From: Octopus vulgaris | Lineage: Eukaryota | DNA length: 64,000 nt | Assembly (NCBI GenBank): GCA_951406725.2 | Contig: OX597837.1 | Coordinates: 12,276,001-12,340,000 of the forward strand | Direction of reading: 5' to 3' | Shown here: positions 4,086-61,849 of the stretch, one piece after another | Layout of the letters: each line of letters opens with the position of its first letter | Position numbering within the stretch: position 1 is the first letter of the stretch | Made by a program: the position numbers and the translations under genes | The notes under the pieces: model-generated | What the model saw: only the letters and a program-made list of their open reading frames with translations | Told to the model about the DNA's origin: nothing | Database searches by the model: none

Positions 4086-4102
4086 AGGCGCAGGAGTGGC
4101 AT

Positions 4103-4509
4103 AGGCGCAGGAGTGGCTGTGTGGTAAGTAGCTTGCTAACCAACCACATGGTTCCGGGTTCAGTCCCACTGCGTGGCATCTTGAGCAAGTGTCTTCTGCT
4201 ATAGCCCCGGGCCGACCAATGCCTTGTGAGTGGATTTGGTAGACAGAAACTGAAAGAAGCCTGTCGTATATATGTATATATATATGTGTGTGTGTGTGTT
4301 TGTGTGTCTGTGTTTGTCCCCCTAGCATTGCCTGACAGCCGATATTGATGTGTTGACGTCCCCGTCACTAAGCGGTTCGGCAAAAGAGACCGATAGAATA
4401 AGTACTGGGCTTACAAAGAATAAGTCCCGGGGTCGATTTGCTCGACTAAAGGCGGTGCTCCAGCATGGCCGCAGTCAAATGACTAAAACAAGTAAGAGAG
4501 TAAAAGAGT
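4103..4509 (+). mobile_element. tRNA-headed SINE, family A (CORE-like), full length
   Basis: It has A/B-box-like head ggagtggctgtgtggtaag...gggttcagtccc, CORE-like cttgagcaagtgtctt, an internal TA/TG repeat, and tail ggcggtgctccagcatggccgcagtc plus gtaaaagag repeats. Recurs at 8156, 54584, 56006 and 61248. Confidence 0.9.
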
Positions 4510-13126: not shown

Positions 13127-13446
13127 ATATATGTATGTATATGTATAATATACAAATATCTAAGATTGGAAAAAGATTTTTTTCAAAAGTTGTTACCTAT
13201 TTAATCTGTTGCAGTCAGTCGTTATCTTCCACGTCGTTACCTGAGAACATTCCTGCCGGACGTTAGCAGCCAGGTGTCAAGAACCAGGAATCTTAGCCTT
13301 TTTGACACTCAACAACAATAACAACAACGATACAGCCAACTGGATGTACGTTTGCATTGTGGTGTCTGGTGATTGGTGGTGCCAACGGATTGCTTGATTC
13401 GTCAGAAGTTTACAGGTAAGACGCATCTCTAGTATTGCAGCTGCTG

Positions 13447-17996: not shown

Positions 17997-18595
17997 CTAG
18001 CAGTATCGCCCGGCGTTGCTCGGGTTTGTAAGGGAAATAACTATATAAGCATTTTTAGAGAGTTATAGCCAAAAAATAGCAAAAAATGCATTAAAAATGG
18101 AAAAAAAGATGATGGTAAATGTTTTTAAATCGTTGACTCATCGTAGACATTTTTAGAGAGTTACTTCCCTTATATAATAGCGAAAAAAATGCATTAAAAT
18201 GGAAAAAAATGATGGTAATTTTTTTTTTAAATCGTAGACTCATCGTAGACATTTTTAGACAGTTACTTCCCTTATATAATAGCGAAAAAATGCATTAAAA
18301 TGGAAAAAAATGATGGTAAATTTTTTTTTTAATCGTTGACTCATCGTAGACATTTTTAGAGAGTTACTTCCTTTATATAATAGCGAAAAAAATGCATTAA
18401 AGTGGAAAAAAATGATGGTAATTTTTTTTTAAATCGTAGACTCATCGTAGACGCACGCTAATACCCAGAAGGGCTCGATATGAATCACGACTATAAGATA
18501 CCCGCTTTTGGTTACACTGCACCGCAAAATGTGGGAGTAGTTAGGAATCTAAATCGTAGGAGACAGACACACAACGTCACTTTTATATATAAAGA
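17997..18595 (-). mobile_element. Non-autonomous Helitron with ~4 internal ~100-bp tandem repeats
   Basis: 5'-TC...hairpin cccgagcaacgccggg...CTAG-3' on the minus strand, with an A|T target. The empty site is visible in the paralogous region (gacaa|gtataagcacatag at ~23825). Confidence 0.85.
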
Positions 18596-19028
18596 TTATA
18601 AGCACATAGAGAGACGATGTATATGATAACGAAGATGAGAAATGATTTCATGTACGCTGTTTTTATAGCTCTACGTTTTATCTCTCTGTTCAGGTTAACG
18701 GAAACAGACGATGAAAGGAACACACCAACTTCCGGTGACTCTGTATTATAGGATATCGCAATGTAAAGGATGCATGTGAAAACCTGAAAGCAGCTTCTAA
18801 CATACAGGCGCCAAACATGAGAATATCAATAAAAACTGAAATATATTTATACTAAGATAGATAAATATATAGAAACAAAAACAAACTTTCCCCCCACACA
18901 AACAGGAACAAACATCTACGCATACACACTCATATAACGAAAAGAAGAAAAACAGTTCCAATTTCGCATTAGATTAAACAAAATCAAAGGAGAGTAAGAA
19001 TTAGAGGTTATCTGAATATCAGTCAACA

Positions 19029-20522
19029 ATGGCGAAGTTTAGCAGCTGTTTCGGTCGATATTGTTCATACCGATGGAAGTTATGTTATATATGTTCGATT
19101 GCGATATTTCTCCTGCAGACGATGAGGGTCGATTTAAGTATGGCCTTTGTTTGTATGTTGAAGACACCAAATCGCACGGCTAACGACGCCAACAGCACTC
19201 AGAGTACCCAACAGTGTTCTGGCCTTGATACTCACAATCAGTCCTCACACGAAACATACAATGGAGAGATCACCTGGAGCAACACTCTTCAAGCGAATGT
19301 ATTAGCCGGTTATTACTACGGTTACATTCTAACAAATATTCTTGGAGGCATTTTAGCAGATAAATATGGCGCTAAAAATATTCTAGGCTTTTCTCTCGTT
19401 TCAGCATCGGCTCTGACTTTGCTCTACCCGAGTTTATCTCGAATAAGTGGTTACTTTACACTTGTCTTAAGGATATTAACTGGGTTAGTATCTGGCCCGA
19501 TGTTTCCAACGGTGCAATCTTTATTTGGTCGGTGGGCTCCACCTCTTGAAAGTAGCACATTGATTGGTCTTGTATGTTCTGGTCAACTCATAGGTAGTAT
19601 TGTATGTTATTCTATATCGGGTTTCCTCTGTGTGTATGGATTTGACAATGGGTGGGGTTCTATATTTTATATATTTGGGGGAATGTCACTGTTGTTCAGT
19701 TCTGCTTGGTTCTATTTTGTCTACGATCGTCCAGAGCTCCATCCGTCTCTTGGTCAAGAAGAACGCGCGTACTTGAATAAAACTGTAAGGTGTAAAAGTA
19801 GAGTTAAAAACATACCCTGGAAAAACATTTGGAGTTCGTCTGCTGTTTGGGCCATCGTTGTTGCCCACACTTGCTATAACTGGACTGATCTTACCCTTAC
19901 CTTATTACTACCACTCTACATGAAAGAAGCCTTGAACGTCGAAACAGAATCAAATGGTTTAATGTCATCTGCTCCTTGGATAGGGCAAGCCATTTCCTTG
20001 CCCTTGTTCGGAAGACTTGCAGATTTTATACGCTCAAAGAACTGTCTGTCAACCCGTTCGATCCGAGTGCTTTTCCAAACTGTGTGTTTCGTTTTCTCGG
20101 CGATTCTATTCATTTCTGTAGGTTTTCTGAAATGTGACCAAGTCCCATTGGCTGGTTTTCTCTTTCTTTTTTGTGGTGTCATCTGGTCTCTCTATATAGG
20201 CGGTTTTAATGTGAACCACGTTGACATTGCTCCGAAATACGCTGGTGTATTGTATGGTATTACGAATACATTTAGTTCCCTACCAGGATTTGTGGCTCCA
20301 ATAACAGCTAGAATACTTACACCGAATGGAACGCAAAAAGAATGGCAAATTGTGTTAGCTTTATGTGCAGGGTTTTCTGTGTTAGGGGCAATAGTATATG
20401 CGATTATGGCGAAAGGGGAAATTCAAGATTGGGCCAAGTACGAAGATAGTTCTATAAATGAAAGAGAATCTCTGAATTTGAAAGAGAGAAGTGCAATTGA
20501 CGGAGATTGTGAAAAGGTTTAG
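19029..20522 (+). CDS. SLC17/sialin-like MFS organic anion transporter, 497 aa, single coding exon (paralog 1)
   Basis: Motifs MRVDLSMAFVCM (TM1 Arg), GGILADKYGAK (MFS motif A), WAPPLE, GWGSIFYIFG, PWKNI, NHVDIAPKYAGVLYGITNT and W..V...GEIQDWA, with ~12 hydrophobic segments. AATAAA lies ~45 nt after the stop. Confidence 0.95.
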   Translation: MAKFSSCFGRYCSYRWKLCYICSIAIFLLQTMRVDLSMAFVCMLKTPNRTANDANSTQSTQQCSGLDTHNQSSHETYNGEITWSNTLQANVLAGYYYGYILTNILGGILADKYGAKNILGFSLVSASALTLLYPSLSRISGYFTLVLRILTGLVSGPMFPTVQSLFGRWAPPLESSTLIGLVCSGQLIGSIVCYSISGFLCVYGFDNGWGSIFYIFGGMSLLFSSAWFYFVYDRPELHPSLGQEERAYLNKTVRCKSRVKNIPWKNIWSSSAVWAIVVAHTCYNWTDLTLTLLLPLYMKEALNVETESNGLMSSAPWIGQAISLPLFGRLADFIRSKNCLSTRSIRVLFQTVCFVFSAILFISVGFLKCDQVPLAGFLFLFCGVIWSLYIGGFNVNHVDIAPKYAGVLYGITNTFSSLPGFVAPITARILTPNGTQKEWQIVLALCAGFSVLGAIVYAIMAKGEIQDWAKYEDSSINERESLNLKERSAIDGDCEKV

Positions 20523-23700: not shown

Positions 23701-24964
23701 ATTTTATACTCAACTAAGGAGTTGGTTTTCGATGTGATCAGCAGAAATTCATGAAGGCGGTGGTCAGCCATGGGTGGAGACAGACGACTGCAATCATTAA
23801 ATTAATGGAATAAATATATAGACAAGTATAAGCACATAGAGAGACGAGGTAAATGATTATCAAGGTGAGAAATGATTTCATGTACGCTGTTTTTATAGTT
23901 CTCCATTTTATCTCTCTGTTCAGGTTAACGGAAACAGACGATGAAGGGAACATACCAACTTCCGGTGACTCTGTATTATAGGATAGCATAATGTACAGGA
24001 TACATAAGAAAAACTGAATTATAAGGCACCAAACACGAGAATATCGATAAAAATGGAAATATAGTAAGATAAATATACATATACAAAAAACTTTACCCGT
24101 TCATATGTACTCACAGACACACATATACATAGAAAGAGACAAATACTGAAGTGTAAGAGATATCTTGACTCTGATTGATAAGAGCCACAATAATCAAAGT
24201 TGGGCATATGAAATAAAACCCAATCGATGTTTGCGCTCATAATTATAAATACTGTACATATACACAGTTAGTATCTCACAAGTATCTCACAACCGGAATA
24301 TTCCAACTGATGGCCATCCATGCCCGTCATCAAATAACCAAAAGAAAAAGAATGAAAAATGGTCTAGGGAAGATAATAAAGAAGTTCTTACGGCCTTCTA
24401 CCATGACATATATTTCCCCACAGATACTTGTATATATACACGGCTAGTATCTCACAAATATTTGCTTAATCCCTCTGATACCGAAGCGCCCGCGCCTACT
24501 CATTTTACTATATTTTAGAGTAATTTGAATTTAATTAAGATTCCATCAAAATTTCAGGTGAAATTATGGTTCAGACATTAGTTTTATATGAAATTCTTTT
24601 TATATGAAATATTTTATGAAATTCTTTGTAATTTTTAAAATCCTTTGAGAGAAAGACAGTTTATTTTAACAGAAATATGGTATGAGAGGAACTGAATGCT
24701 TTCTGATAGTTTGGCTCTGGTTTATGTGAACTAAAACAATTTCGAATACATCACACAAACAAGTATTGATTTAGATACACTTCAAGAAATACAACCTGTA
24801 CAATACACTTATCCCCACCTCACACCCCCACACACAAACAGGAACAAATATCTACGCATACACACTCATATAACGAAAAGAAGAAAAACAGTTCCAATTT
24901 CGCATTTGATTAACGAAAATCAAAGGAGAGTAAGAATTAGAGGTTATCTGAATATCAGTCAACA

Positions 24965-26452
24965 ATGGCGAAGTTTAGCAGCTGTTTCGGTCGATACTGT
25001 TCATACCGATGGAAGTTATGTTATATATGTTCGATTGCGATATTTCTCCTGCAGACGATGAGGGTCGATTTAAGTATGGCCTTTGTTTGTATGTTGAAGA
25101 CACCAAATCGCACGGCTAACGACGCCAACAGCACTCAGAGTACCCAACAGTGTTCTGGCCTTGATACTCACAATCAGTCCTCACACGAAACATACAATGG
25201 AGAGATCACCTGGAGCAACAATCTTCAAGCGAATGTATTAGCCGGTTATTACTACGGTTACACTCTAACAAATATTCTTGGAGGCATTTTAGCAGACAAA
25301 TATGGCGCTAAAAATATTCTAGGCTTTTCTCTCGTTTCAGCATCGGCTCTGACTTTGCTCTACCCGAGTTTATCTCGAATAAGTGGTTAGTTGTCTTAAG
25401 GATATTAACTGGGTTAGTATCTGGCCCGATGTTTCCATCGGTGCAATCTTTATTTGGTCGGTGGGCTCCACCTTTTGAAGGTAGCGCATTGCTTGGTCTT
25501 GTATTTTCTGGTCAACTCATAGGTAGTATTGTATGTTATTCTATATCGGGTTTCCTCTGTGTGTATGGATTTGACAATGGGTGGGGTTCTATATTTTATA
25601 TATTTGGGGGAATGTCACTGTTGTTCAGTTCTGCTTGGTTCTATTTTGTCTATGATCATCCAGAGCTCCATCCGTCTCTTGGTCAAGAAGAACGCGCGTA
25701 CTTGAATAAAACTGTAAGGTGTAAAAGTAGAGTTAAAAACATACCCTGGAAAAACATTTGGAGTTCGTCTGCTGTTTGGGCCATCGTTGTTGCCCACACT
25801 TGCTATAACTGGACTGATCTTACCCTTACCTTATTACTACAACTCTACATGAAAGAAGCCTTGAACGTCGAAACAGAATCAAATGGTTTAATGTCATCTG
25901 CTCCTTGGATAGGGCAAGCCATTTCCTTGCCCTTGTCCGGAAGACTTGCAGATTTTATACGCTCAAAAGAACTGTCTGTCAACTCGTTCGATCCGAGTGC
26001 TTTTCCAAACTGTGTGTTTCGTTTTCTCGGCGATTCTATTCATTTCTGTAGGTTTTCTGAAATGTGACCAAGTCCCATTGGCTGGTTTTCTCTTTCTTTT
26101 TTCTGGTGTCATCTGGTCTCTCTATATAGGCGGTTTTAATGTGAACCACGTTGACATTGCTCCGAAATACGCTGGTGTATTGTATGGTATTACGAATACA
26201 TTTAGTTCCCTACCAGGATTTGTGGCTCCAATAACAGCTAGAATACTTACACCGAATGGAACGCAAAAAGAATGGCAAATTGTGTTAGCCTTATGTGCAG
26301 GGTTTTCTGTGTTAGGGGCAATAGTATATGCGATTATGGCGAAAGGGGAAATTCAAGATTGGGCCAAGTACGAAGATAGTTCTATAAATGAAAGAGAATC
26401 TCTGAATTTGAAAGAGAGAAGAGCAATTGACGGAGATTGTGAAACGGTTTAG
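24965..26452 (+). pseudogene. SLC17/sialin-like pseudogene, recent duplicate of paralog 1
   Basis: Collinear with 19029-20522. ctttacac is replaced by g (net -7 nt), creating TAG at 25388-25390, and there is a +1 A at 25965-25968. Length 1488 = 1494-7+1. Confidence 0.88.
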
Positions 26453-27629: not shown

Positions 27630-28052
27630 ATTATTACCATATTTAAAGGACAAGAATCACTTTCTATTGAAAGAACTGACCAGCTGCAAAGATGTAAACA
27701 CATTTTTTCTTCTTCCTCTCTCCCTTCTTTCTTTCCTTCTCTTTTCCATTGACACTCCTTTCAGATACATAGACATGCACGCACACACACACACACGCAC
27801 AGGCACGCACTCTCTCTCACTTTCTCCCCGTTCATCACCCTCTCTTACTATCCTATATCTCTCTCCACACCTACACACTCAATAATACTATAAAAAGAGA
27901 CAAATCTCCTGAAAAAATTCAATCTGAAGATTCCACTAGAGTGGATGCAAGCGCTAATATATGATTTGTAAAAGCATGTGACATATTAATAAAAAATCTC
28001 TCTATATAAAACCATCCGGATTTCTGAGTACCTTATTTCTTCTAATATATAT

Positions 28053-28085
<33 letters not shown>

Positions 28086-28315
28086 AGTGTGTGTGTGACC
28101 GCGTGTGTAACTTTGGCGATTTTATTCCTCCATCTTCCCTTCCTTTGATCTTTCCTTTTCCTATGTTTCTGACGAAGAGCTCCGCTCGAAACGTTAAGTC
28201 CTCCTTCTTTCCTTCCTTTCCTGAGCGTCCAATAACACTATATTTGTTCCACGTCCTCGCGTTGTTGTGTTTTCTCTTTGTGTTTTCATGTTTGGATTAA
28301 CTATATATACATACA

Positions 28316-28400
<85 letters not shown>
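27630..28400 (+). repeat. Segmental duplicate (pair at ~34330-35080), upstream of paralogs 3 and 4
   Basis: ttaccatatttaaag...actttctattgaaagaactgaccagctg...ctgaagattccactagagtggatgcaagcgc...ctgacgaagagctccgctcgaaacg...(TA)n is collinear in both places. Confidence 0.9.
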
Positions 28401-28405
<5 letters not shown>

Positions 28406-31697: not shown

Positions 31698-33179
31698 ATG
31701 TCGAAGTTTAACGAATTTATCAACTATTATGGTTCATGTCGATGGCGGCTGTGTTATGTCAGCTTTTTCGCTTTGCTTCTCATGCAGACTTTACGTGTAG
31801 ACCTGAGTATGTCGTTAGTTTGCATGTTAAAAACACCCAATCGTACAATTGATGAAGTCAACCTTACTCGAAATAACGAACACTGTTCTCGTTCAGACAA
31901 TCGCACATCAAATGGAGAGGATTTTGAAGGAGAGTTCGAATGGAGTAACATTCTGCAATCAAACATGCTGGCTGGATACTTTTATGGATACACAATTACT
32001 AACCTTCTTGGCGGTGTATTAGCTGACAAATATGGTGGAAAGAGAGTTATGGGGGTTTCCATATTCTCAGCTTCTCTCCTGACCCTTCTTCACCCAAGTC
32101 TAACTCGAATAAGTGGTTATTTTACTCTCGTATTAAGGACACTTACAGGTCTGGTTTCAGGGCCCATGTTTCCTGCAGTGCAGTCCTTGTGGGGTCGATG
32201 GGCTCCACCTAGTGAAAGTAGTACTTTGATAGGGATTTCATTTGCCGGTCAGATATTAGGTAGCATTGTAGGTCTGTCAGCTTCCGGTTTCCTTTGTGTT
32301 TATGGCTTTGATAATGGATGGGGTTCTATATTTTATATATTTGGTGGATTATCGTTGGTGTTTAGCTTTGTGTGGATTTATGTTGTTTATGATAATCCAA
32401 ACGTTCATCCAACTATAAGCGAAAAAGAACGTTCCTATTTAAACAAAACAATAAAATGTAAAAGTAAAGTTAAGAACGTGCCTTGGAAAAGCATCATGTC
32501 CTCTACAGCCGTTTGGGCCATCATCATGGCGCATACACTAATTAACTGGACCGTTATTTCTTTTCAAGTGATTCTTCCTTTGTATATGAAGGAAGCGTTA
32601 AATATTGATACGAAATCAAACGGTTTAATGTCTTCAGCTCCGTTTATTGGGCAAATAATTGCTATACCATTTTGTGGAAGATTCGCAGACTTCTTGCGTT
32701 CAAACAATTATCTTTCAACACGATCCGTTCGAGTTCTTTTCCAGTCAGTTTCTTACATTGGTTCAGCGTCTCTGATTACCGTAATCGGGTTCCTTAATTG
32801 CAATCACACGACATTGGCCGGAATTCTTTTCTTTATTACTGGAACCAGCTTAACATTCTATTATGCAGGCCTGAGTGTAAATCATGTTGACATTGCTCCT
32901 ATATACGCTGGTATATTGTACGGAATTACCAATACTTTCGCATCGTTACCTGGCTTTGTGGTTCCTTTAACTACAAAAGCACTGACACCAAATGGAACAC
33001 AGCAAGAATGGCAAGTAGTATTATCATTGTGTGCCATATTTTCTGTGTGTGGGACAATAATCTATGCAATATTCGCGCGTGGGGATGTACAAGATTGGGC
33101 TAAATCTGATGAAAAATCGATTAAAAATTCTTCAAACGAGGAAGAAACTATAAATCTAAATGAGGTAAAACAAGGATAA
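31698..33179 (+). CDS. SLC17/sialin-like MFS transporter, 493 aa (paralog 3)
   Basis: Intact ORF with LRVDLSMSLVCM, GGVLADKYGGKR, WAPPSE, NHVDIAPIYAGILYGITNT and GDVQDWA. Confidence 0.95.
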   Translation: MSKFNEFINYYGSCRWRLCYVSFFALLLMQTLRVDLSMSLVCMLKTPNRTIDEVNLTRNNEHCSRSDNRTSNGEDFEGEFEWSNILQSNMLAGYFYGYTITNLLGGVLADKYGGKRVMGVSIFSASLLTLLHPSLTRISGYFTLVLRTLTGLVSGPMFPAVQSLWGRWAPPSESSTLIGISFAGQILGSIVGLSASGFLCVYGFDNGWGSIFYIFGGLSLVFSFVWIYVVYDNPNVHPTISEKERSYLNKTIKCKSKVKNVPWKSIMSSTAVWAIIMAHTLINWTVISFQVILPLYMKEALNIDTKSNGLMSSAPFIGQIIAIPFCGRFADFLRSNNYLSTRSVRVLFQSVSYIGSASLITVIGFLNCNHTTLAGILFFITGTSLTFYYAGLSVNHVDIAPIYAGILYGITNTFASLPGFVVPLTTKALTPNGTQQEWQVVLSLCAIFSVCGTIIYAIFARGDVQDWAKSDEKSIKNSSNEEETINLNEVKQG

Positions 33180-34329: not shown

Positions 34330-35004
34330 TTTACCATATTTAAAAGACAAGAACCACTTTCTATTGAAAGAACTGACCAGCTGTATAGAAGTAAACACAT
34401 TTTTCTTCTTTCTCTCTTCCTCCTTCCTTTCCTTCTCTTTTCCATTGACACTCCTTTCAGATACAAAGGCACACACACACACAGAGGCACACACTCTCTC
34501 TCACTTTCTCCCCGTTCCTCATCCTCTCTTACTATCCTATATCACTCTCCACCCCTACACACTCAATAATACTAAAAAAAAGAGAAAAATCCCCTGAAAA
34601 ATTCATCTGAAGATTCCACTAGAGTGGATGCAAGCGCTAATATATGATTTGTAAAAACATGTGACATATTAATAAAAATCTCTATATATAAAACCATCCA
34701 GATTTCTGAGTACCTTATTTCTTCTAATATATGCGTGTGTGTGCGTGTGTGTGCGTGTGACCGCGTGTGTGCCGTTGGCGATTTTTTTTCTCCGTCTTCC
34801 CTTCCTTGGATCTTTCCTTTTCCTATGTTTCTGACGAAGAGCTCCGCTCGAAACGTTAAGTCCTCCTTCTTTCTTTCCTTTCCTGATCGTCCAATAACAC
34901 TATACTTGTTCCATGTCCTCGCGTTGTGTTTTCTTGTGTTTTTCATGTTTGGACTAACTATATATATATATATATATATATGTATACATATGTGTGTGTG
35001 TGTG

Positions 35005-35080
<76 letters not shown>
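34330..35080 (+). repeat. Segmental duplicate (pair of 27630-28400)
   Basis: See 27630-28400; a further partial copy lies at ~34146-34270. Confidence 0.9.
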
Positions 35081-38981: not shown

Positions 38982-40460
38982 ATGTCGAGGTTGAACGAAT
39001 TTGTCAGCCATTATTGTTCATGTCGATGGCGGCTGTGCTTTGCCAGCTTTTTCGCTTTGCTTCTCATGCAGACTTTACGTGTAGACCTTAGTATGTCGTT
39101 AGTTTGCATGTTAAAAACACCCAATCGTACAATTGATGAAGTCAACCTTACTCGAAATAACGAACACTGTTCTCGTTTAGACAATCGTACATCAAATGGA
39201 GAGGATTTTGAAGGAGAGTTCGAATGGAGCAACATTCTGCAATCAAACATGCTGGCTGGATACTTTTATGGATACATTATTACTAACCTTCTTGGCGGTG
39301 TATTAGCTGACAAATATGGTGGAAAGAGAGTTATGGGGGCTTCCATATTCTCAGCTTCCCTCCTGGCCATTCTTCACCCAAGTCTAACACGAATAAGTGG
39401 TTATTTTACTCTTGTATTAAGGATTCTTACAGGGTTGGTCTCAGGTCCCATGTGCCCTTGTGTCCAATCCCTATGGGGGAGGTGGGCTCCACCTAGTGAA
39501 AGTAGTATTTTGATAGGGTTTTCAATGGGAGGTTTAGTAGTCGGGAGCGTTGTAGGACTGTCAACGTCCGGTTTCCTTTGCGTTTATGGCTTTGATAATG
39601 GATGGGGTTCTATATTTTATGTATTTGGTGGATTATCGATGGTGTTTAGCTTTATGTGGATTTATGTTGTTTATGATAATCCAAACGTCCATCCTACTAT
39701 CAGCGAAAAAGAACGTTCCTACTTAAACAAAACAATAACATGTAAAAGTAAAGTTAAGAACGTGCCTTGGAAAAGCATCATGACTTCTACAGCCGTTTGG
39801 GCCATCATTATGGCGCATACATTTATCAACTGGACTACTTTTTCTTTTCAAGTGATTCTGCCTTTGTATATGAAAGAAGCGTTAAATATTGATACGAAAT
39901 CAAACGGTTTAATGTCTTCAGCTCCGTTTATTGGACAAATGATTGCTATACCATTTTGTGGAAGATTCGCAGACTTCTTGCGTTCAAACAATTATCTTTC
40001 AACACGATCCGTTCGAGTTCTTTTCCAGTCAGTTTCTTACATTGGTTCAGCGTCTCTGATTATCGTAATCGGATTCCTTAATTGCAACCACACGACATTG
40101 GCCGGAATTCTTTTCTTTTTCACCGGTGCCAGCCTAACTTTCTATGTTGGGGGCTTCATTGTGAATCATGTTGACATCGCTCCTAAATACGCTGGTATAT
40201 TGTACGGAATTACAAATACTTTCGGGGCGTTGCCTGGCTTTCTGGCTCCTTTAACCACAAGAGCATTGACACCGAATGGAACACGGCAAGAATGGCAGAT
40301 AGCTTTATCATTGTGTGCCATATTTTCTGTGTGTGGGACAATAATTTATGCGATTTTTGCGCGTGGGGATGTACAAGATTGGGCTAAATCTGATGAAAAA
40401 TCGATTAAAAATTCTTCAAACGAGGAAGAAACTATAAATCTAAAGGAGGTGATACAATAA
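38982..40460 (+). CDS. SLC17/sialin-like MFS transporter, 492 aa (paralog 4)
   Basis: Intact ORF with the same motifs as paralog 3. Confidence 0.95.
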   Translation: MSRLNEFVSHYCSCRWRLCFASFFALLLMQTLRVDLSMSLVCMLKTPNRTIDEVNLTRNNEHCSRLDNRTSNGEDFEGEFEWSNILQSNMLAGYFYGYIITNLLGGVLADKYGGKRVMGASIFSASLLAILHPSLTRISGYFTLVLRILTGLVSGPMCPCVQSLWGRWAPPSESSILIGFSMGGLVVGSVVGLSTSGFLCVYGFDNGWGSIFYVFGGLSMVFSFMWIYVVYDNPNVHPTISEKERSYLNKTITCKSKVKNVPWKSIMTSTAVWAIIMAHTFINWTTFSFQVILPLYMKEALNIDTKSNGLMSSAPFIGQMIAIPFCGRFADFLRSNNYLSTRSVRVLFQSVSYIGSASLIIVIGFLNCNHTTLAGILFFFTGASLTFYVGGFIVNHVDIAPKYAGILYGITNTFGALPGFLAPLTTRALTPNGTRQEWQIALSLCAIFSVCGTIIYAIFARGDVQDWAKSDEKSIKNSSNEEETINLKEVIQ

Positions 40461-51760: not shown

Positions 51761-52330
51761 CATATTGTTTAGTTCAGCCCACTTGTATATTAGAATCAGG
51801 TGGTAGTAAAAATTCCTAAAATTTTTTTTACACTAATATTATTAATTATGTATAAAAATTTCTGGTAGATTCGTTCGAAGATTTTGCCGGCGATTTCCTG
51901 CTGCCGACAAAAAAGACTGCGATTGCGCACTGGATTTGAAAATATTTAACATATACGAGCAATGAGACGCATGCTGGATTGGTCTCGTTGTATGCGTATT
52001 CAATATATGGTGTCCCTCTTGATAACGACTTCGCCTAGTGAATAATAATTTTTATTTACTAAAATAGGTCAGTAACCACGATCCAAGAATCAGATGGTAA
52101 TTGTTTTCATTTCTTAATTCCCTTCGAAAACTTATCCCTAATTAGTGATTTGGAAATTGACTGTTATTTCTAGCGTAACGGATTCCTATGAATAATATAT
52201 TGTCTATTGACTAATTTTTTTTTTACGCAGGGCCAGTGGTAGTATAAATTTCTAAAATTTTTATTACCCTGATATTATTAATTATTTATAATAGTTTCTG
52301 GTAGATTCGTTCGAAGATTTTGCCTAATTA

Positions 52331-53015
52331 GTGGTTTGTTTTCATTTTTTAATTCCCTTCGAGAATTTATCCCTAATTTGTGGTTTGTTTTCATTTTTTA
52401 ATTCCCTTCGAGAATTTATCCCTAATTTGTGGTTTGTTTTCATTTTTTAATTCCCTTCGAGAATTTATCCCTAATTTGTGGTTTGTTTTCATTTCTTAAT
52501 TCCCTTCGAGAATTTATCCCTAATTTGTGGTTTGTTTTCATTTCTTAATTCCCTTCGAGAATTTATCCCTAATTTGTGGTTTGTTTTCATTTTTTAATTC
52601 CCTTCGAGAATTTATCCCTAATTTGTGGTTTGTTTTTATTTTTTAATTCCCTTCGAGAATTTATCCCTAATTTGTGGTTTGTTTTCATTTCTTAATTCCC
52701 TTCGAGAATTTATCCCTAATTTGTGGTTTGTTTTCATTTTTTAATTCCCTTCGAGAATTTATCCCTAATTTGTGGTTTGTTTTTATTTTTTAATTCCCTT
52801 CGAGAATTTATCCCTAATTTGTGGTTTGTTTTCATTTCTTAATTCCTTCGAGAATTTATCCCTAATTTGTGGTTTGTTTTCATTTCTTAATTCCCTTCGA
52901 GAATTTATCCCTAATTTGTGGTTTGTTTTCATTTCTTAATTCCCTTCGAGAATTTATCCCTAATTTGTGGTTTGTTTTTATTTTTTAATTCCCTTCGAGA
53001 ATTTATCCCTAATTA
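52331..53015. repeat. 49-bp minisatellite, ~14 copies
   Basis: Unit gtggtttgttttcattttttaattcccttcgagaatttatccctaattt starts at 52331, 52380, 52429, 52478 and onward. Confidence 0.95.
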
Positions 53016-53051
53016 GTGCTTTGGAAATTGACTGTTATTTCTAGCGTAACG

Positions 53052-54121
53052 GGTACTAGTCGTGGAGACTGGACCCGGTGCGCGCAGACGCGCATCCGTG
53101 CTAGCCAGTCGTAGGTAGTCGATCCTACAGTGACTTGCGTATTGTGTTTACTTTGAATAGCTACGGCAAACTGCTTTTAACAGGAAAATCGGTTACTGGT
53201 GACAAGCCAACAACGTGGGGTCAGAATTTAGTTGCCAGGCAGATAGAGGAAGGGTATTACAGTGACAGATCACAGACGAACATAACACTAATTGCCTCGT
53301 ATGAAATGGTTCACTAATTAACTTATGAGGCTCCTGTCAACGACCAAGCCTCTTTAATGTAAACTGATAGTAACCAAATTTCCCCCACGTAGGAGTAAAA
53401 CATTTCTATGAAGTAAAGGGTTACTTTACGTCTGGTTAGAAATAAACTCCTTTGATCAGGTCTGCACGACCAGGGCAGTGTTGGGACTGGGAACTGTTCA
53501 GCTGAAGTTAAAGACGAGAGTTCAGTTGGGTCTTTGGAGAAACTGAAAACAAGGAGCAAACACAGACCTTGTACAACTTCGGTCAAGAGATATCTTCCAC
53601 CGAGCTGTTAGAAATAGCAGCCGAATTTTGTTTTAAAGTCAAACTGAACAATGCAGTATTGGATTTACAACAAAGCGGGATGGCCACGACCAAAATGTCT
53701 AATAATTAAGGGTTGGTCAGGGGTTAAATTCCAGTTAAAAGAGAACGAGCATAGCTGAATGTTTAACGAAGTTTGCCGTAGCTATGCAAAGGAAACACAA
53801 GTGAATGGTCGCCTGTAGGGGTCTACTTTGAAAAAAAAAAATGTTTGACTATCCTTAAGGTTGTTTTGCTTTTTTTTTCAATGCTTCTAATTGTTTTGTA
53901 ACGAAAAAAAAAAACGCAATTGTCTTTAAAATAATATACACCGTATATCGTTAAAAAATATTTCCTAAGCTTCAGTAGGGGCTCGCTATTAACTTAGTTT
54001 TTGCAGTTTTGCGCCAATCAGCTAATTTCCATGCGCAAATCGATGTAGGATAGACCACCTACGACTGGCTAGCGCGTCTGCGCGAGTGCACGCACCGGGT
54101 CCAGTCTCCACGACTAGTACC
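53052..54121. mobile_element. Non-autonomous TIR DNA transposon (MITE), Merlin-like
   Basis: 31-bp perfect TIR ggtactagtcgtggagactggacccggtgcg (imperfect to ~78 bp), with 8-bp TSD gcgtaacg at 53044-53051 and 54122-54129. The empty site is present in other monomers. A GG-start TIR with an 8-bp TSD fits Merlin. Confidence 0.85.
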
Positions 54122-54583
54122 GCGTAACGGATTATTATGATTAATATATAGTCTATTGACTATTTTTTTTTACGCAGGGCCAGTGGTAGTATAAATTTCT
54201 ACAATTTTTATTACCCTGATATTATAAATTATGTATAATAATTTCTGGTAGATTCGTTCGAAGGTTTTGTCGGTGATTTGCTGCTGCCGACAAAAAAGAC
54301 TGCGATTGCGCACTGGATTTGAAAATATTTAACATATACGAGCAATGAGACGCATGCTGGATTGGTCTCGTTGTATGCGTATTCAATATATGGTGTCCCT
54401 CTTGATAACCACTTTGCGTCGTGAATAATAATTTTTATTTGCTAAAATAGGTCAGTAACCACGATCCAAGAATCAGATGGTAATTGTTTTCATTTCTTAA
54501 TTCCCTTCGAGAATTTATCCCTAATTAGTGATTTGGAAATTGACTGTTATTTCTAGCGTAACGGATTCCTATGAATAATGTAT

Positions 54584-54988
54584 AGGCGCAGGAGTGGCTG
54601 TGTGGTAAGTAGCTTGCTAACCAACCACATGGTTCCGGGTTCAGTCCCACTGCGTGGCATCTTGGGCAAGTGTCTTCTGCTATAGCCCCGGGCTGACCAA
54701 TTCCTTGTGAGTGGATTTGGTAGACGGAAACTGAAAGAAGCCTGTCGTGTATATGTATATATATTATCATGTGTGTGTTTGTGTCTGTGTTTGTCCCCCT
54801 GGTATAGCTTGACAACCGATGCTGATGTGTTTACGTCCCTGTTACTTAGCGGTTCGGCATAAGAGGTCGTTAGAGTAAGTACTGGGCTTACAAAAAGAAT
54901 AAGTCCTGGGGTCGATTTGCTCGACTAAAGGCGGTGCTCCAGCATGGCCGCAGTCAAATAACTGAAACAAGTAAAAGAGAGAGAGAGA
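54584..54988 (+). mobile_element. SINE family A inside satellite monomer
   Basis: Collinear with 4103-4509; same junctions as 56006 and 61248. Confidence 0.9.
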
Positions 54989-56005
54989 GTCTATTGACTA
55001 ATTTTTTTTTTACGCTGAGCCAGTGGTAGTAAAATATTCTAGAATTTTTATTACCCTGATATTATAAATTATGTATAATAATTTCTGGTAGATTCGTTCG
55101 AAGGTTTTGCCGGCGATTTGCTGCTGCCGACAAAAAAAGACTGCGATTGCGCACTGGATTTGAAAATATTTAACATATACGAGCAATGAGACGCAAGCTG
55201 GATTGGTCTCGTTGTATGCGTATTCAATATATGGTGTCCCTCTTGATAACCACTTTGCGTCGTGAATAATAATTTTTATTTGCTAAAATAGGTCAGTAAC
55301 CACGATCCAAGAATCAGATGGTAATTGTTTTCATTTCTTAATTCCCTTCGAGAATTTATCCCTAATTTGTGATTTGTTTTTATTTTTTAATTCCCTTCGA
55401 GAATTTATCCCTAATTTGTGGTTTGTTTTTAGTTTTTAATTCCCTTCGAGAATTTATCCCTAATTTGTGGTTTGTTTTCATTTTTTAATTCCCTTCAAGA
55501 ATTTATCCCTAATTAGTGATTTGGAAATTGACTGTTATTTCTAGCGTAACGGATTCCTATGAATAATATATTGTCTATTGACTAATTTTTTTTACGCAGG
55601 GACAGTAGCAGTAAATATTTCTAAAATTTTTATTACCCTGATATTATTAATTATTTATAATAATTTCTGGTAGATTCGTTCGAAGGTTTTGTCGGTGATT
55701 TGCTGCTGCCGACAAAAAAGACTGCGATTGCGCACTGGATTTGAAAATATTTAACATATACGAGCAATGAGACGCATGCTGGATTGGTCTCGTTGTATGC
55801 ATATTCAATATATGGTGTCCCTCTTGATAACCACTTTGCGTCGTGAATAATAATTTTTATTTGCTAAAATAGGTCAGTAACCACGATCCAAGAATCAGAT
55901 GGTAATTGTTTTTATTCTTTAATTCCCTTCGAGAATTTATCCCTAATTAGTGATTTGGAAATTGACTGTTATTTCTAGCGTAACGGATTCCTATGAATAA
56001 TGTAT

Positions 56006-56410
56006 AGGCGCAGGAGTGGCTGTGTGGTAAGTAGCTTGCTAAGCAACCACATGGTTCCGGGTTCAGTCCCACTGCGTGGCATCTTGGGCAAGTGTCTTCT
56101 GCTATAGCCCCGGGCTGACCAATTCCTTGTGAGTGGATTTGGTAGACGGAAACTGAAAGAAGCCTGTCGTGTATATGTATATATATTATCATGTGTGTGT
56201 TTGTGTATGTGCTTGTCCCCCTGGTATAGCTTGACAACCGATGCTGATGTGTTTACGTCCCCGTTACTTAGCGGTTCGGCATAAGAGGTCGTTAGAGTAA
56301 GTACTGGGCTTACAAAAAGAATAAGTCCTGGGGTCGATTTGCTCGACTAAAGGCGGTGCTCCAGCATGGCGGAAGTCAAATAACTGAAACAAGTAAAAGA
56401 GAGAGAGAGA
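56006..56410 (+). mobile_element. SINE family A inside satellite monomer
   Basis: Same insertion site and same diagnostic variants as 54584. Confidence 0.9.
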
Positions 56411-59400
56411 GTCTATTGACTAATTTTTTTTTTACGCTGAGCCAGTGGTAGTAAAATATTCTAGAATTTTTATAACCCTGATATTATAAATTATGTATAA
56501 TAATTTCTGGTAGATTCGTTCGAAGGTTTTGCCGGCAATTTGCTGCTGCCGACAAAAAAGACTGCGATTGCGCACTGGATTTGAAAATATTTAACATATA
56601 CGAGCAATGAGACGCATGCTGGATTGGTCTCGTTGTATGCGTATTCAATATATGGTGTCCCTCTTGATAACCACTTTGCGTCGTGAATAATAATTTTTAT
56701 TTGCTAAAATAGGTCAGTAACCACGATCCAAGAATCAGATGGTAATTGTTTTTATTTTTTAATTCCCTTCGAGAATTTATCCCTAATTTGTGATTTGTTT
56801 TTATTTTTTAATTCCCTTCGAGAATTTATCCCTGATTTGTGGTTTGTTTTCATTTCTTAATTCCCTTCGAGAATTTATCCCTAATTTGTGGTTTGTTTTT
56901 ATTTTTTAATTCCCTTCGAGAATTTATCCCTAATTTGTGGTTTGTTTTTAGTTTTTAATTCCCTTCGAGAATTTATCCCTAATTTGTGGTTTGTTTTCAT
57001 TTTTTAATTCCTTCAAGAATTTATCCCTAATTAGTGATTTGGAAATTGACTGTTATTTCTAGCGTAACGGATTCCTATGAATAATATATTGTCTATTGAC
57101 TAATTTTTTTTACGCAGGGACAGTGGCAGTAAATATTTCTAAAATTTTTATTACCCTGATATTATTAATTATTTATAATAATTTCTGGTAGATTCGTTCG
57201 AAGGTTTTGTCGGTGATTTGCTGCTGCCGACAAAAAAGACTGCGATTGCGCACTGGATTTGAAAATATTTAACATATACGAGCAATGAGACGCATGCTGG
57301 ATTGGTCTCGTTGTATGCGTATTCAATATATGGTGTCCCTCTTGATAACCACTTTGCGTCGTGAATAATAATTTTTATTTGCTAAAATAGGTCAGTAACC
57401 ACGATCCAAGAATCAGATGGTAATTGTTTTTATTTTTTAATTCCCTTCGAGAATTTATCCCTAATTTGTGATTTGTTTTTATTTTTTAATTCCCTTCGAG
57501 AATTTATCCCTAATTTGTGGTTTGTTTTTAGTTTTTAATTCCCTTCGAGAATTTATCCCTAATTTGTGGTTTGTTTTTATTTTTTAATTCCCTTCGAGAA
57601 TTTATCCCTAATTTGTGGTTTGTTTTTAGTTTTTAATTCCCTTCGAGAATTTATCCCTAATTTGTGGTTTGTTTTCATGTTTTAATTCCTTCAAGAATTT
57701 ATCCCTAATTAGTGATTTGGAAATTGACTGTTATTTCTAGCGTAACGGATTCCTATGAATAATATATTGTCTATTGACTAATGTTTTTTACGCAGGGACA
57801 GTGGCAGTAAATATTTCTAAAATTTTTATTACCCTGATATTATTAATTATTTATAATAATTTCTGGTAGATTCGTTCGAAGGTTTTGCCGGCGATTTGCT
57901 GCTGCCGACAAAAAAGACTGCGATTGCGCACTGGATTTGAAAATATTTAACATATACGAGCAATAGCGAGACGCATGCTGGATTGGTCTCGTTGTATGCG
58001 TGCGATTCAATATACGAGCAATGAGGTGTCCCTCTTGATAACCACTTTGCGTCGTGAATAATAATTTTTATTTACTAAAATAGGTCAGTAACCACGATCC
58101 AAGAATCAGATGGTAATTGTTTTCATTTCTTAATTCCCTTCGAGAATTTATCCCTAATTAGTGATTTGGAAATTGACTGTTATTTCTAGCGTAACGGATT
58201 CCTATGAATAATGTATAGGCGCAGTATATTGTGGTATTGCTAACCAACCACATGGTTCCGGGTTTCCCACTGCGTGGCATCTTGGGCAAGTGTCTTCTGC
58301 TATAGCCGGGTAAATACTGTGAGTGGATTTAAAATGAAAAAGCCTGTCGTGTTATGTATATTATTATCTGATATCTTAATTATTTATAATAATTTCTGGT
58401 AGATTCGTTCGAAGGTTTTGCCGGCGATTTGCTGCTGCTGACAAAAAGACTGAAATTGACGCAATGGATATTTGAAAATATTTAACATATACGAGCAATG
58501 AGACGCATGCTGGATTGGTCTCGTTGTATGTATTCAATATATGGTGTCCTCTTGATAACCACTTTGCGTCGTGAATAATAATTTTTATTTGCTAAAATAG
58601 GTCAGTAACCACGATCCAAGAATCAGATGGTAATTGTTTTTATTTTTTAATTCCCTTCGAGAATTTATCCCTAATTTGTGATTTGTTTTTATTTTTTAAT
58701 TCCCTTCGAGAATTTATCCCTAATTTGTGGTTTGTTTTTAGTTTTAATTCCCTTCGAGAATTTATCCCTAATTTGTGGTTTGTTTTTATTTTTTAATTCC
58801 TTCGAGAATTTATCCCTAATTTGTGGTTTGTTTTTTAGTTTTAATTCCCTTCGAGAATTTATCCCTAATTTGTGGTTTGTTTTCATGTTTTAATTCCTTC
58901 AAGAATTTATCCCTAATTAGTGATTTGGAAATTGACTGTTATTTCTAGCGTAACGGATTCCTATGAATAATATATTGTCTATTGACTAATGTTTTTTACG
59001 CAGGGACAGTGGCAGTAAATATTTCTAAAATTTTTATTACCCTGATATTATTAATTATTTATAATAATTTCTGGTAGATTCGTTCGAAGGTTTTGCCGGC
59101 GATTTGCTGCTGCCGACAAAAAAGACTGCGATTGCGCACTGGATTTGAAAATATTTAACATATACGAGCAATGAGACGCATGCTGGATTGGTCTCGTTGT
59201 ATGCGTATTCAATATATGGTGTCCCTCTTGATAACCACTTTGCGTCGTGAATAATAATTTTTATTTGCTAAAATAGGTCAGTAACCACGATCCAAGAATC
59301 AGATGGTAATTGTTTTTATTTTTTAATTCCCTTCGAGAATTTATCCCTAATTTGTGATTTGTTTTTATTTTTTAATTCCTTCGAGAATTTATCCCTAATT

Positions 59401-61247
59401 TGTGGTTTGTTTTTAGTTTTTAATTCTCTTCGAGAATTTATCCCTAATTTGTGGTTTGTTTTTATTTTTTAATTCCCTTCGAGAATTTATCCCTAATTTG
59501 TGGTTTGTTTTTAGTTTTTAATTCCTTCGAGAATTTATCCCTAATTTGTGGTTTGTTTTCATGTTTTAATTCCTTCAAGAATTTATCCCTAATTAGTGAT
59601 TTGGAAATTGACTGTTATTTCTAGCGTAACGGATTCCTATGAATAATATATTGTCTATTGACTAATGTTTTTTACGCAGGGACAGTGGCAGTAAATATTT
59701 CTAAAATTTTTATTACCCTGATATTATTAATTATTTATAATAATTTCTGGTAGATTCGTTCGAAGGTTTTGCCGGCGATTTGCTGCTGCCGACAAAAAAG
59801 ACTGCGATTGCGCACTGGATTTGAAAATATTTAACATATACGAGCAATGAGACGCATGCTGGATTGGTCTCGTTGTATGCGTATTCAAATATATGGTGTC
59901 CCTCTTGATAACCACTTTGCGTCGTGAATAATAATTTTTATTTGCTAAAATAGGTCAGTAACCACGATCCAAGAATCAGATGGTAATTGTTTTTATTTTT
60001 TAATTCCCTTCGAGAATTTATCCCTAATTTGTGATTTGTTTTTATTTTTTAATTCCCTTCGAGAATTTATCCCTAATTTGTGGTTTGTTTTTAGTTTTTT
60101 AATTCCCTTCGAGAATTTATCCCTAATTTATGGTTTGTTTTCATTTTTTAATTCCCTTCAAGAATTTATCCCTAATTAGTGATTTGGAATTGACTGTTAT
60201 TTCTAGCGTAACGGATTCCTATGAATAATATATTGTCTATTGACTAATGTTTTTTACGCAGGGACAGTGGCAGTAAATATTTCTAAAATTTTTATTACCC
60301 TGATATTATTAATTATTTATAATAATTTCTGGTAGATTCGTTCGAAGGTTTTGCCGGCGATTTGCTGCTGCCGACAAAAAAGACTGCGATTGCGCACTGG
60401 ATTTGAAAATATTTAACATATACGAGCAATGAGACGCATGCTGGATTGGTCTCGTTGTATGCGTATTCAAATATATGGTGTCCCTCTTGATAACCACTTT
60501 GCGTCGTGAATAATAATTTTTATTTGCTAAAATAGGTCAGTAACCACGATCCAAGAATCAGATGGTAATTGTTTTTATTTTTTAATTCCCTTCGAGAATT
60601 TATCCCTAATTTGTGATTTGTTTTTATTTTTTAATTCCCTTCGAGAATTTATCCCTAATTTGTGGTTTGTTTTTAGTTTTTAATTCTCTTCTAGAATTTA
60701 TCCCTAATTTGTGGTTTGTTTTCATTTTTTAATTCCCTTCAAGAATTTATCCCTAATTAGTGATTTGGAATTTGACTGTTATTTCTAGCGTAACGGATTC
60801 CTATGAATAATATATTGTCTATTGACTAATGTTTTTTACGCAGGGACAGTGGCAGTAAATATTTCTAAAATTTTTATTACCCTGATATTATTAATTATTT
60901 ATAATAATTTCTGGTAGATTCGTTCGAAGGTTTTGCCGGCGATTTGCTGCTGCCGACAAAAAGACTGCGATTGCGCACTGGATTTGAAAATATTTAACAT
61001 ATACGAGCAATGAGACGCATGCTGGATTGGTCTCGTTGTATGCGTATTCAATATATGGTGTCCCTCTTGATAACCACTTTGCGTCGTGAATAATAATTTT
61101 TATTTGCTAAAATAGGTCAGTAACCACGATCCAAGAATCAGATGGTAATTGTTTTATTTCTTAATTCCCTTCGAGAATTTATCCCTAATTAGTGATTTGG
61201 AAATTGACTGTTATTTCTAGCGTAACGGATTCCTATGAATAATGTAT

Positions 61248-61652
61248 AGGCGCAGGAGTGGCTGTGTGGTAAGTAGCTTGCTAACCAACCACATGGTTCC
61301 GGGTTCAGTCCCACTGCGTGGCATCTTGGGCAAGTGTCTTCTGCTATAGCCCCGGGCTGACCAATTCCTTGTGAGTGGATTTGGTAGACGGAAACTGAAA
61401 GAAGCCTGTCGTGTATATGTATATATATTATCATGTGTGTGTTTGTGTCTGTGTTTGTCCCCCTGGTATAGCTTGACAACCGATGCTGATGTGTTTACGT
61501 CCCCGTTACTTAGCGGTTCGGCATAAGAGGTCGTTAGAGTAAGTACTGGGCTTACAAAAAGAATAAGTCCCGGGGTTGATTTGCTCGACTAAAGGCGGTG
61601 CTCCAGCATGGCCGCAGTCAAATAACTGAAACAAGTAAAAGAGAGAGAGAGA
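61248..61652 (+). mobile_element. SINE family A inside satellite monomer
   Basis: Same insertion site and same diagnostic variants as 54584. Confidence 0.9.
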
Positions 61653-61849
61653 GTCTATTGACTAATTTTTTTTTTACGCTGAGCCAGTGGTAGTAAAATA
61701 TTCTAGAATTTTTATTACCCTGATATTATAAATTATGTATAATAATTTCTGGTAGATTCGTTCGAAGGTTTTGCTGGATTGGTCTCGTTGTATGTATATT
61801 CAATCTATGGTGTCGCTCTTGATAACGACTTCGCCTAGTGAATAATATA

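Follow-up and report, generated by a model that had tools for sequence, protein, structure and literature searches.

Loss of the TM4 glutamates in a tandem array of octopus sialin-like SLC17 genes appears to be an old and common state of the family

In human sialin (SLC17A5), two glutamates of TM4 are used to move protons. The E171Q or E175Q substitution was reported to remove about 95% of transport (PMC9858498), and double glutamate mutants to lose more than 60% (PMC11116495). According to the text of the latter source, the double mutants retain some transport at pH 5.6 in HEK cells and a voltage-driven mode exists in sialin itself; residues other than E171 and E175 may couple protons in this protein. 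The VGLUTs are described as voltage-driven and not proton-coupled, and as having a TM7 arginine, R322, that is unique to them (10.1101/2022.07.26.501550). For the NPTs, one sentence of a preprint states that they 'lack these proton-binding residues', a lack which is tied there to sodium dependence and not to voltage (10.64898/2026.05.20.726482). NPT1 and NPT4 have been characterised as electrogenic apical urate transporters (PMC8366499), and the vertebrate SLC17A1-4 genes were reported to derive from a duplication of Slc17a5 (PMC2824716). In octopus, an expansion of 'sialin' genes is known (Albertin et al. 2015, as cited in PMC6110919).

The stretch analysed here, called the window, is 64 kb of Octopus vulgaris DNA (contig OX597837.1, positions 12,276,001 to 12,340,000). 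Five SLC17 copies were found on one strand within it, the coding sequence of each being a single exon, together with a decayed remnant of a sixth copy:

19029..20522, + strand: W1, intact SLC17 gene (sialin-like / slc-17.2-like), single-exon ORF of 497 aa
24965..~26453, + strand: W2, recent duplicate of W1, a frameshifted pseudogene (from ORFs and DNA comparison)
31698..33179, + strand: W3, intact paralogue, ORF of 493 aa
33814..34097, + strand: decayed sixth-copy remnant, TM8-TM10 region (tblastn E 2.9e-09, two frames)
38982..40460, + strand: W4, intact paralogue, ORF of 492 aa
46047..47528, + strand: W5, intact paralogue, ORF of 493 aa

Among the matches listed, those closest to W1 came from O. 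bimaculoides, O. sinensis, O. vulgaris and Argonauta and were annotated as sialin or slc-17.2-like; in a comparison by eye, W1 differed from O. sinensis XP_029650294.1 at 9 of 497 residues. W2 is 97.9% identical to W1 at the DNA level over 1669 bases and its reading frame is broken by the loss of 7 bases near 25388, directly followed by a stop, and by the gain of 1 base at 25965. An assembly error is an unlikely cause of the first of these lesions, because a partial O. sinensis model (XP_036368757.1, P0287) begins with the same shifted reading. The remnant shares about 76-77% DNA identity with W3-W5 and adjoins a (CA)n run. W3-W5 are under purifying selection, with dN/dS of 0.23-0.27 among the three (0.23-0.24 for W3 against W4 and W5) and of about 0.1 against W1, where dS is saturated. 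The intronless tandem coding sequences could mean that the array originated as a retrocopy of a single-copy coleoid gene of the P0034 type.

W1 probably has spliced transcripts, the evidence being a short upstream segment recovered on contigs from two studies:

13389..13415, + strand: W1, probable non-coding upstream exon, 3' end (contigs, two studies)

On these contigs (runs X1 and X5), 24 loose letters have an exact and sole match at 13389-13412. The segment is followed by GTAAG at 13416, providing a GT donor, and the AG acceptor lies at 18692-18693, so that the intron spans about 5.3 kb; the short side of this join is 27 letters, and the threshold for a bridge was 31 letters. Run X18 had hardly any coverage of the gene. 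Three contigs covering W1 showed 15 coding differences, none of them at the codons of the sites under study. An acceptor-like region, 82% alike to that of W1, was also seen upstream of W2 at 23814-24090.

The window also contains several repeats. A 49-bp satellite is present in 14.3 copies at 52323-53023 and in further blocks of 4-6 copies (window 51800-61800), and sits inside larger tandem repeats of about 580-680 and 1420 bases with 88-98% identity. High-copy interspersed repeats were found at 18460-18600, 4101-4508, 27634-28402 and 34331-35073 by cross-matches, with very high contig depth at 18460-18600, and are probably mobile elements.

To assign residues, W1 was aligned by phmmer to the solved human sialin (E 7.8e-98), and the alignment was gap-free in TM1, TM4 and TM7. 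The regions concerned are as follows, and sites are numbered below by sialin position unless a W1 residue is named:

19116..19133, + strand: TM1 of W1, with Q30 (sialin Y54), R33 (R57) and D35 (N59)
19470..19559, + strand: TM4 to the start of TM5 of W1, with R148 retained and T151, S155, Q163, S175 and T177 (sialin K197)
19866..19892, + strand: TM7 pocket of W1, with H280, Y283 and N284 retained and D287 (sialin F305) and L288 (Y306)

In TM4, sialin R168 corresponds to R148 (codon at 19470), E171 to T151 (19479) and E175 to S155 (19491), followed by H183 at Q163 (19515) and R195 at S175 (19551). In TM1, R57 corresponds to R33 (19125) and N59 to D35 (19131), and in TM7 F305 corresponds to D287 (19887). 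The substitution of T or S for E171 and E175 and of Q for H183 in all copies, which an earlier note on this DNA had proposed, was thus borne out, and the sialin and VGLUT2 motifs quoted there agree with the PDB chains. The anion-binding arginine of TM1 was likewise retained, as claimed. The note had treated the histidine as a proton-coupling residue; in the text of PMC9858498, H183 lies at the cytosolic constriction and is predicted to be neutral (pKa ~3.6). An aspartate had been placed next to the TM1 arginine, and D35 is indeed present in all copies, two residues after the arginine and not adjacent to it. W3, W4 and W5 have the same T, S, Q and D as W1 at 171, 175, 183 and 59, and carry V, T and A, respectively, at 305. 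The TM7 aspartate reported for copies 1 and 2 is present in both and in no other copy; as W2 is frameshifted, W1 is the only intact copy in the window to have it. The changes had been assigned to a single span, 19458..19560, and those in TM1 and TM7 lie outside it.

The R39/E194/E262 triplet is retained in W1 as R15, E174 and E245, as is the luminal cysteine pair. According to a list of helix charges, D35 is the only buried-looking acid in TM1-TM6 and TM7 of W3-W5. The predicted model of W1 is confident (pLDDT 89.2, pTM 0.89) and has 12 long helices, and the top 10 Foldseek matches were sialin, VGLUT2 and DgoT. An alignment artefact at TM4 was ruled out by the lack of gaps and by an independent HMM alignment that gave the same columns. 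Restoration of a glutamate by RNA editing was also ruled out, as the genetic code does not allow the ACT/ACA and TCT/TCA codons to become Glu or Asp codons by A-to-G changes; the contigs, which omit rare variants, were unchanged at the codons for 171 and 175.

The loss of the TM4 acids is widespread. Two sets of proteins were scored, the first being the best 120 matches listed for W1 (50 from the cephalopod group, of which four were placed by similarity and tree, and 70 others). Both acids were absent from all 48 scorable cephalopod-group rows of this set and from 62 of the 70 non-cephalopod homologues; seven of the latter had both and one had the first only. Gln at H183 was found in 19/70 of the non-cephalopod homologues listed, and the wider clade has mostly L/I/V/M and T/A/S/Q at sites 171 and 175. 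The second set comprised the best 150 representatives of 50%-identity clusters, with 157 complete TM4 domains and four rows shared with the W1 matches. Both acids were missing from 97 of these domains (100/160 before the removal of three truncated rows), a count biased in their favour, since acid-less proteins had served to build the profile; 27 had both acids, 24 only E175 and 9 only E171. The picture was reversed in a search with a canonical snail sialin, where 99/122 domains among the matches listed retained both glutamates. No named cephalopod was among the best 120 of the 1456 matches to this snail protein, and no loss is claimed from this.

On the tree, which was a quick one of 53 chosen proteins with midpoint rooting and SH-aLRT support only, the window proteins fall within a clade of 26 rows (SH-aLRT 99) of annelid, nemertean, chiton, bivalve, gastropod and cephalopod origin, none of which has E171 or E175; a separate tree of 101 rows agrees. 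The window array is therefore not made up of sialin orthologues on this tree. The mollusc groups of the clade also own E/E sialins elsewhere on the tree and so, if the tree is right, the loss predates the molluscs. From these alignments and trees, the loss of E171 and E175 appears to be a common and old state of SLC17 and not an octopus innovation. The earlier note had seen a special clade with rewired energetics, and this is not supported, as the substitution is common across invertebrate SLC17s, the very outcome that the note had named in advance as counting against it. The same counts bear on the statement in PMC9858498 that E171 and E175 are 'absolutely conserved' in SLC17, which is contradicted by the solved-structure alignment (VGLUT2 has Gln at 171), the homologue counts and the domain counts. 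In the accessible literature on octopus and cephalopod sialin or SLC17 and on invertebrate SLC17 phylogeny (subscription papers, alignment figures and preprint supplements lying outside it), no study of the residues or transport of this clade was found; the accessible parts of PMC9815951, PMC8125070 and PMC6172772 hold nothing on it. No NPT or VNUT was present among 39 PDB matches, and no such sequence is given as text in the accessible supplements of PMC11649914 and PMC11116495.

The explanation that we favour, with moderate confidence, is that the window genes encode proton-uncoupled carriers driven by gradient and voltage, probably at the plasma membrane. The four intact genes would be working members of an old lophotrochozoan SLC17 branch that lacks the TM4 glutamates and has undergone tandem expansion in octopods. 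A small organic anion would bind the retained arginines of TM1 and TM4, R33 and R148, and alternating access would let it follow its own gradient and the membrane potential, either by uniport or by anion exchange, with the VGLUTs and the electrogenic NPT1 and NPT4 as precedents. D35 could then either be fixed as a partner of R148 or be a variant that is tolerated, and variation between paralogues in TM7, where the pocket is probably fast-changing, could tune the cargo. As the proton relay of sialin cannot work in the way described without E171 and E175, the proton-independent transport suggested in the earlier note is likely, as far as can be judged from the residues. A location other than the lysosome would fit the sorting signals. 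The pattern [DE]xxxL[LI], which is that of dileucine sorting signals, occurs in the tails of 67/110 canonical sialin-like proteins, 1/35 array proteins and 5/61 other W1 homologues among the matches listed, and the N-terminal tail of array proteins is short, with a median of 14 residues. In sialin, the dileucine signal was reported as L22/L23 (PMC11116495). Several points stand against the proton-uncoupled reading: D35 is widely kept in the cephalopod group; its sialin equivalent, N59, lies in the proton tunnel; the double glutamate mutants of sialin retain some transport at pH 5.6; and the preprint on the NPTs connects their lack of these residues with sodium and not with voltage.

A possible, though rather unlikely, further reading is that cargo has changed in the copies with a TM7 acid, with D287 binding an amine so that W1-type proteins carry a zwitterion (an amino acid or amino-sulfonate) and not a plain anion. 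F305 is a pocket residue of sialin (PMC9858498), and its equivalent in VGLUT2 by alignment, F326, was reported to contact the glutamate amine (10.1101/2022.07.26.501550). Among the W1 matches listed, an acid at 305 is enriched in the cephalopod group (19/45 scorable rows against 2/69 others), Y54 has become Q in 33/39 scorable cephalopod-group rows, and Y306 is lost, mostly to L or I. W3-W5 also differ from one another at W1 positions 284, 287 and 288 and in TM10. However, R33 is retained in 37/39 scorable cephalopod-group rows among these matches, so that binding of a carboxylate or sulfonate probably persists, and D, N, S, I and other residues interchange freely at position 305, perhaps a sign of relaxed constraint. 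Amine-bearing cargo is compatible with proton-uncoupled carriers and with any of the other modes of coupling considered here.

Coupling to another ion, either as Na+ symport or as obligatory anion exchange, with D35, T151 and S155 forming a cation site near R148, is unlikely. The side chains of T, S and D could bind a cation, and the NPT precedent is phrased as sodium-dependent in the preprint (10.64898/2026.05.20.726482). The best NCBIfam model for 4/4 proteins was TIGR00894, the Na+-dependent phosphate cotransporter subfamily (E ~1e-102 to 1e-107), but their scores of 341-357 bits fall below its curated cut-off of 626. The side chains listed above for 171 and 175 across the wider clade would make a poor conserved ion site, and the same preprint describes the NPTs as now viewed mainly as organic anion carriers.

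The earlier note had also raised a relocated proton site. In its present form, D35 would pair with R148 as a protonatable latch replacing E171, as D46 does with R126 in DgoT, and E175 may likewise be replaced in W1-type proteins by D287, paired with R33; proton coupling or pH gating would then have reappeared in the coleoid branch. We consider this doubtful. It is structurally plausible, as sialin N59 lines a lumen-accessible tunnel beside R168 (PMC9858498) and the equivalent residue of DgoT, N49, contacts R126 after protonation of D46 (PMC11649914), in a register in which DgoT D46 aligns with sialin L56 and R47 with R57 (PMC9858498). Among the W1 matches listed, D59 is found in 34/39 scorable cephalopod-group rows, including the cuttlefish (P0277), against 2/66 other homologues. 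D35 is the best lead among the cephalopod-specific features of these sequences. The comparative tests, however, did not favour a relocated site and gave no signal of compensation. The W1 orthologue of O. bimaculoides (P0001) has Asn at this site, and neither Asp is present in P0008 (Argonauta), P0024 (O. sinensis) or P0031 among the same matches. D59 also occurs in 5/118 scorable canonical domains, four of them from snail proteins with both glutamates. Glutamate loss was not linked to D59 (7/8 vs 72/125, Fisher p=0.14) or to any pocket acid (23/75 vs 16/53, p=1.0), the p values being rough since the rows are related, and the non-cephalopod members of the clade manage without any acid. A fuller scenario, in which coleoids built a new titratable site, D35-R148, in a proton-blind SLC17 lineage, after which the array shed the cytoplasmic lock and its TM7 diversified (D287) for amine-bearing cargo, is less probable again.

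Channel-like anion flux, which the earlier note had suggested and for which no evidence was found in the window proteins, or decay of the copies into non-functional ones, is very improbable: the VGLUTs have an uncoupled Cl- conductance (10.1101/2022.07.26.501550) and the array includes one pseudogene and one remnant, but purifying selection, the confident predicted carrier fold and the probable spliced transcripts argue against decay. In the K197-D350 cytoplasmic lock, the basic residue, which falls at residues 175-177 of W1 (window 19551-19559), is lost from 42/42 scorable array rows and kept in 6/6 single-copy relatives, with the acidic partner at D350 retained in the array. This loss weighs little, because VGLUT2 R213S, the equivalent change, was reported to transport like wild type (10.1101/2022.07.26.501550). 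The triplet without the lock was found in 5.8% of 7455 SLC17 sequences (10.64898/2026.04.20.719580).

As the TM4 loss flagged in the earlier note seems to be common, it is unsurprising, and the interest that remains would lie in a 'sialin' expansion whose genes are not orthologues of sialin. This expansion, which is cited as a hallmark of cephalopod genomes, should not be equated with many lysosomal symporters of sialic acid and protons, as the array descends from another lineage, which lacks both the proton relay and the dileucine signal. E171 and E175 are also not absolutely conserved in SLC17, contrary to the wording of PMC9858498. The paralogues offer a natural series, with D or N at 59 and D, V, T or A at 305, for the study of coupling and cargo in SLC17. 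If the D35 site were real, it would be a natural case of proton coupling being lost and then regained in a single family, at a position unused in any studied SLC17.

Compared with known systems, the window is part of the octopus 'sialin' expansion and resembles it in having tandem sialin-like SLC17 genes, but on the tree its genes belong to a different clade, one lacking the TM4 glutamates, a point that Albertin et al. 2015 may already note. E. coli DgoT, in which a TM1 aspartate, D46, is latched to a TM4 arginine (PMC11649914), is the model for a relocated site; its D46 lies one residue before the TM1 arginine, whereas D35 lies two after, and DgoT requires E133, for which the window proteins have no equivalent. 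VGLUT1-3 (SLC17A6-8) are alike in lacking E171 (Q187 in VGLUT2), but they keep E191 and the TM7 arginine R322, where the window proteins have S and either Y283 (W1) or I (W3-W5), respectively.

Human sialin is alike in predicted fold (TM-score 0.75-0.81 by query length) at about 35% identity and shares R39, R57, S61, Y119, R168, E194, E262, D350, H298 and the luminal cysteines with the window proteins, which lack E171, E175, H183, R195, K197, Y54, F305 and Y306, as well as the dileucine signal in their N-terminal tail of 14 residues. The TM4 proton-binding acids are absent both from the window proteins and, by description, from NPT1/3/4/5 (SLC17A1-4). As the NPT lineage arose in vertebrates from the Slc17a5 duplication, this points to an independent loss, and NPT1/3/4/5 may be the best functional analogue of the window proteins.
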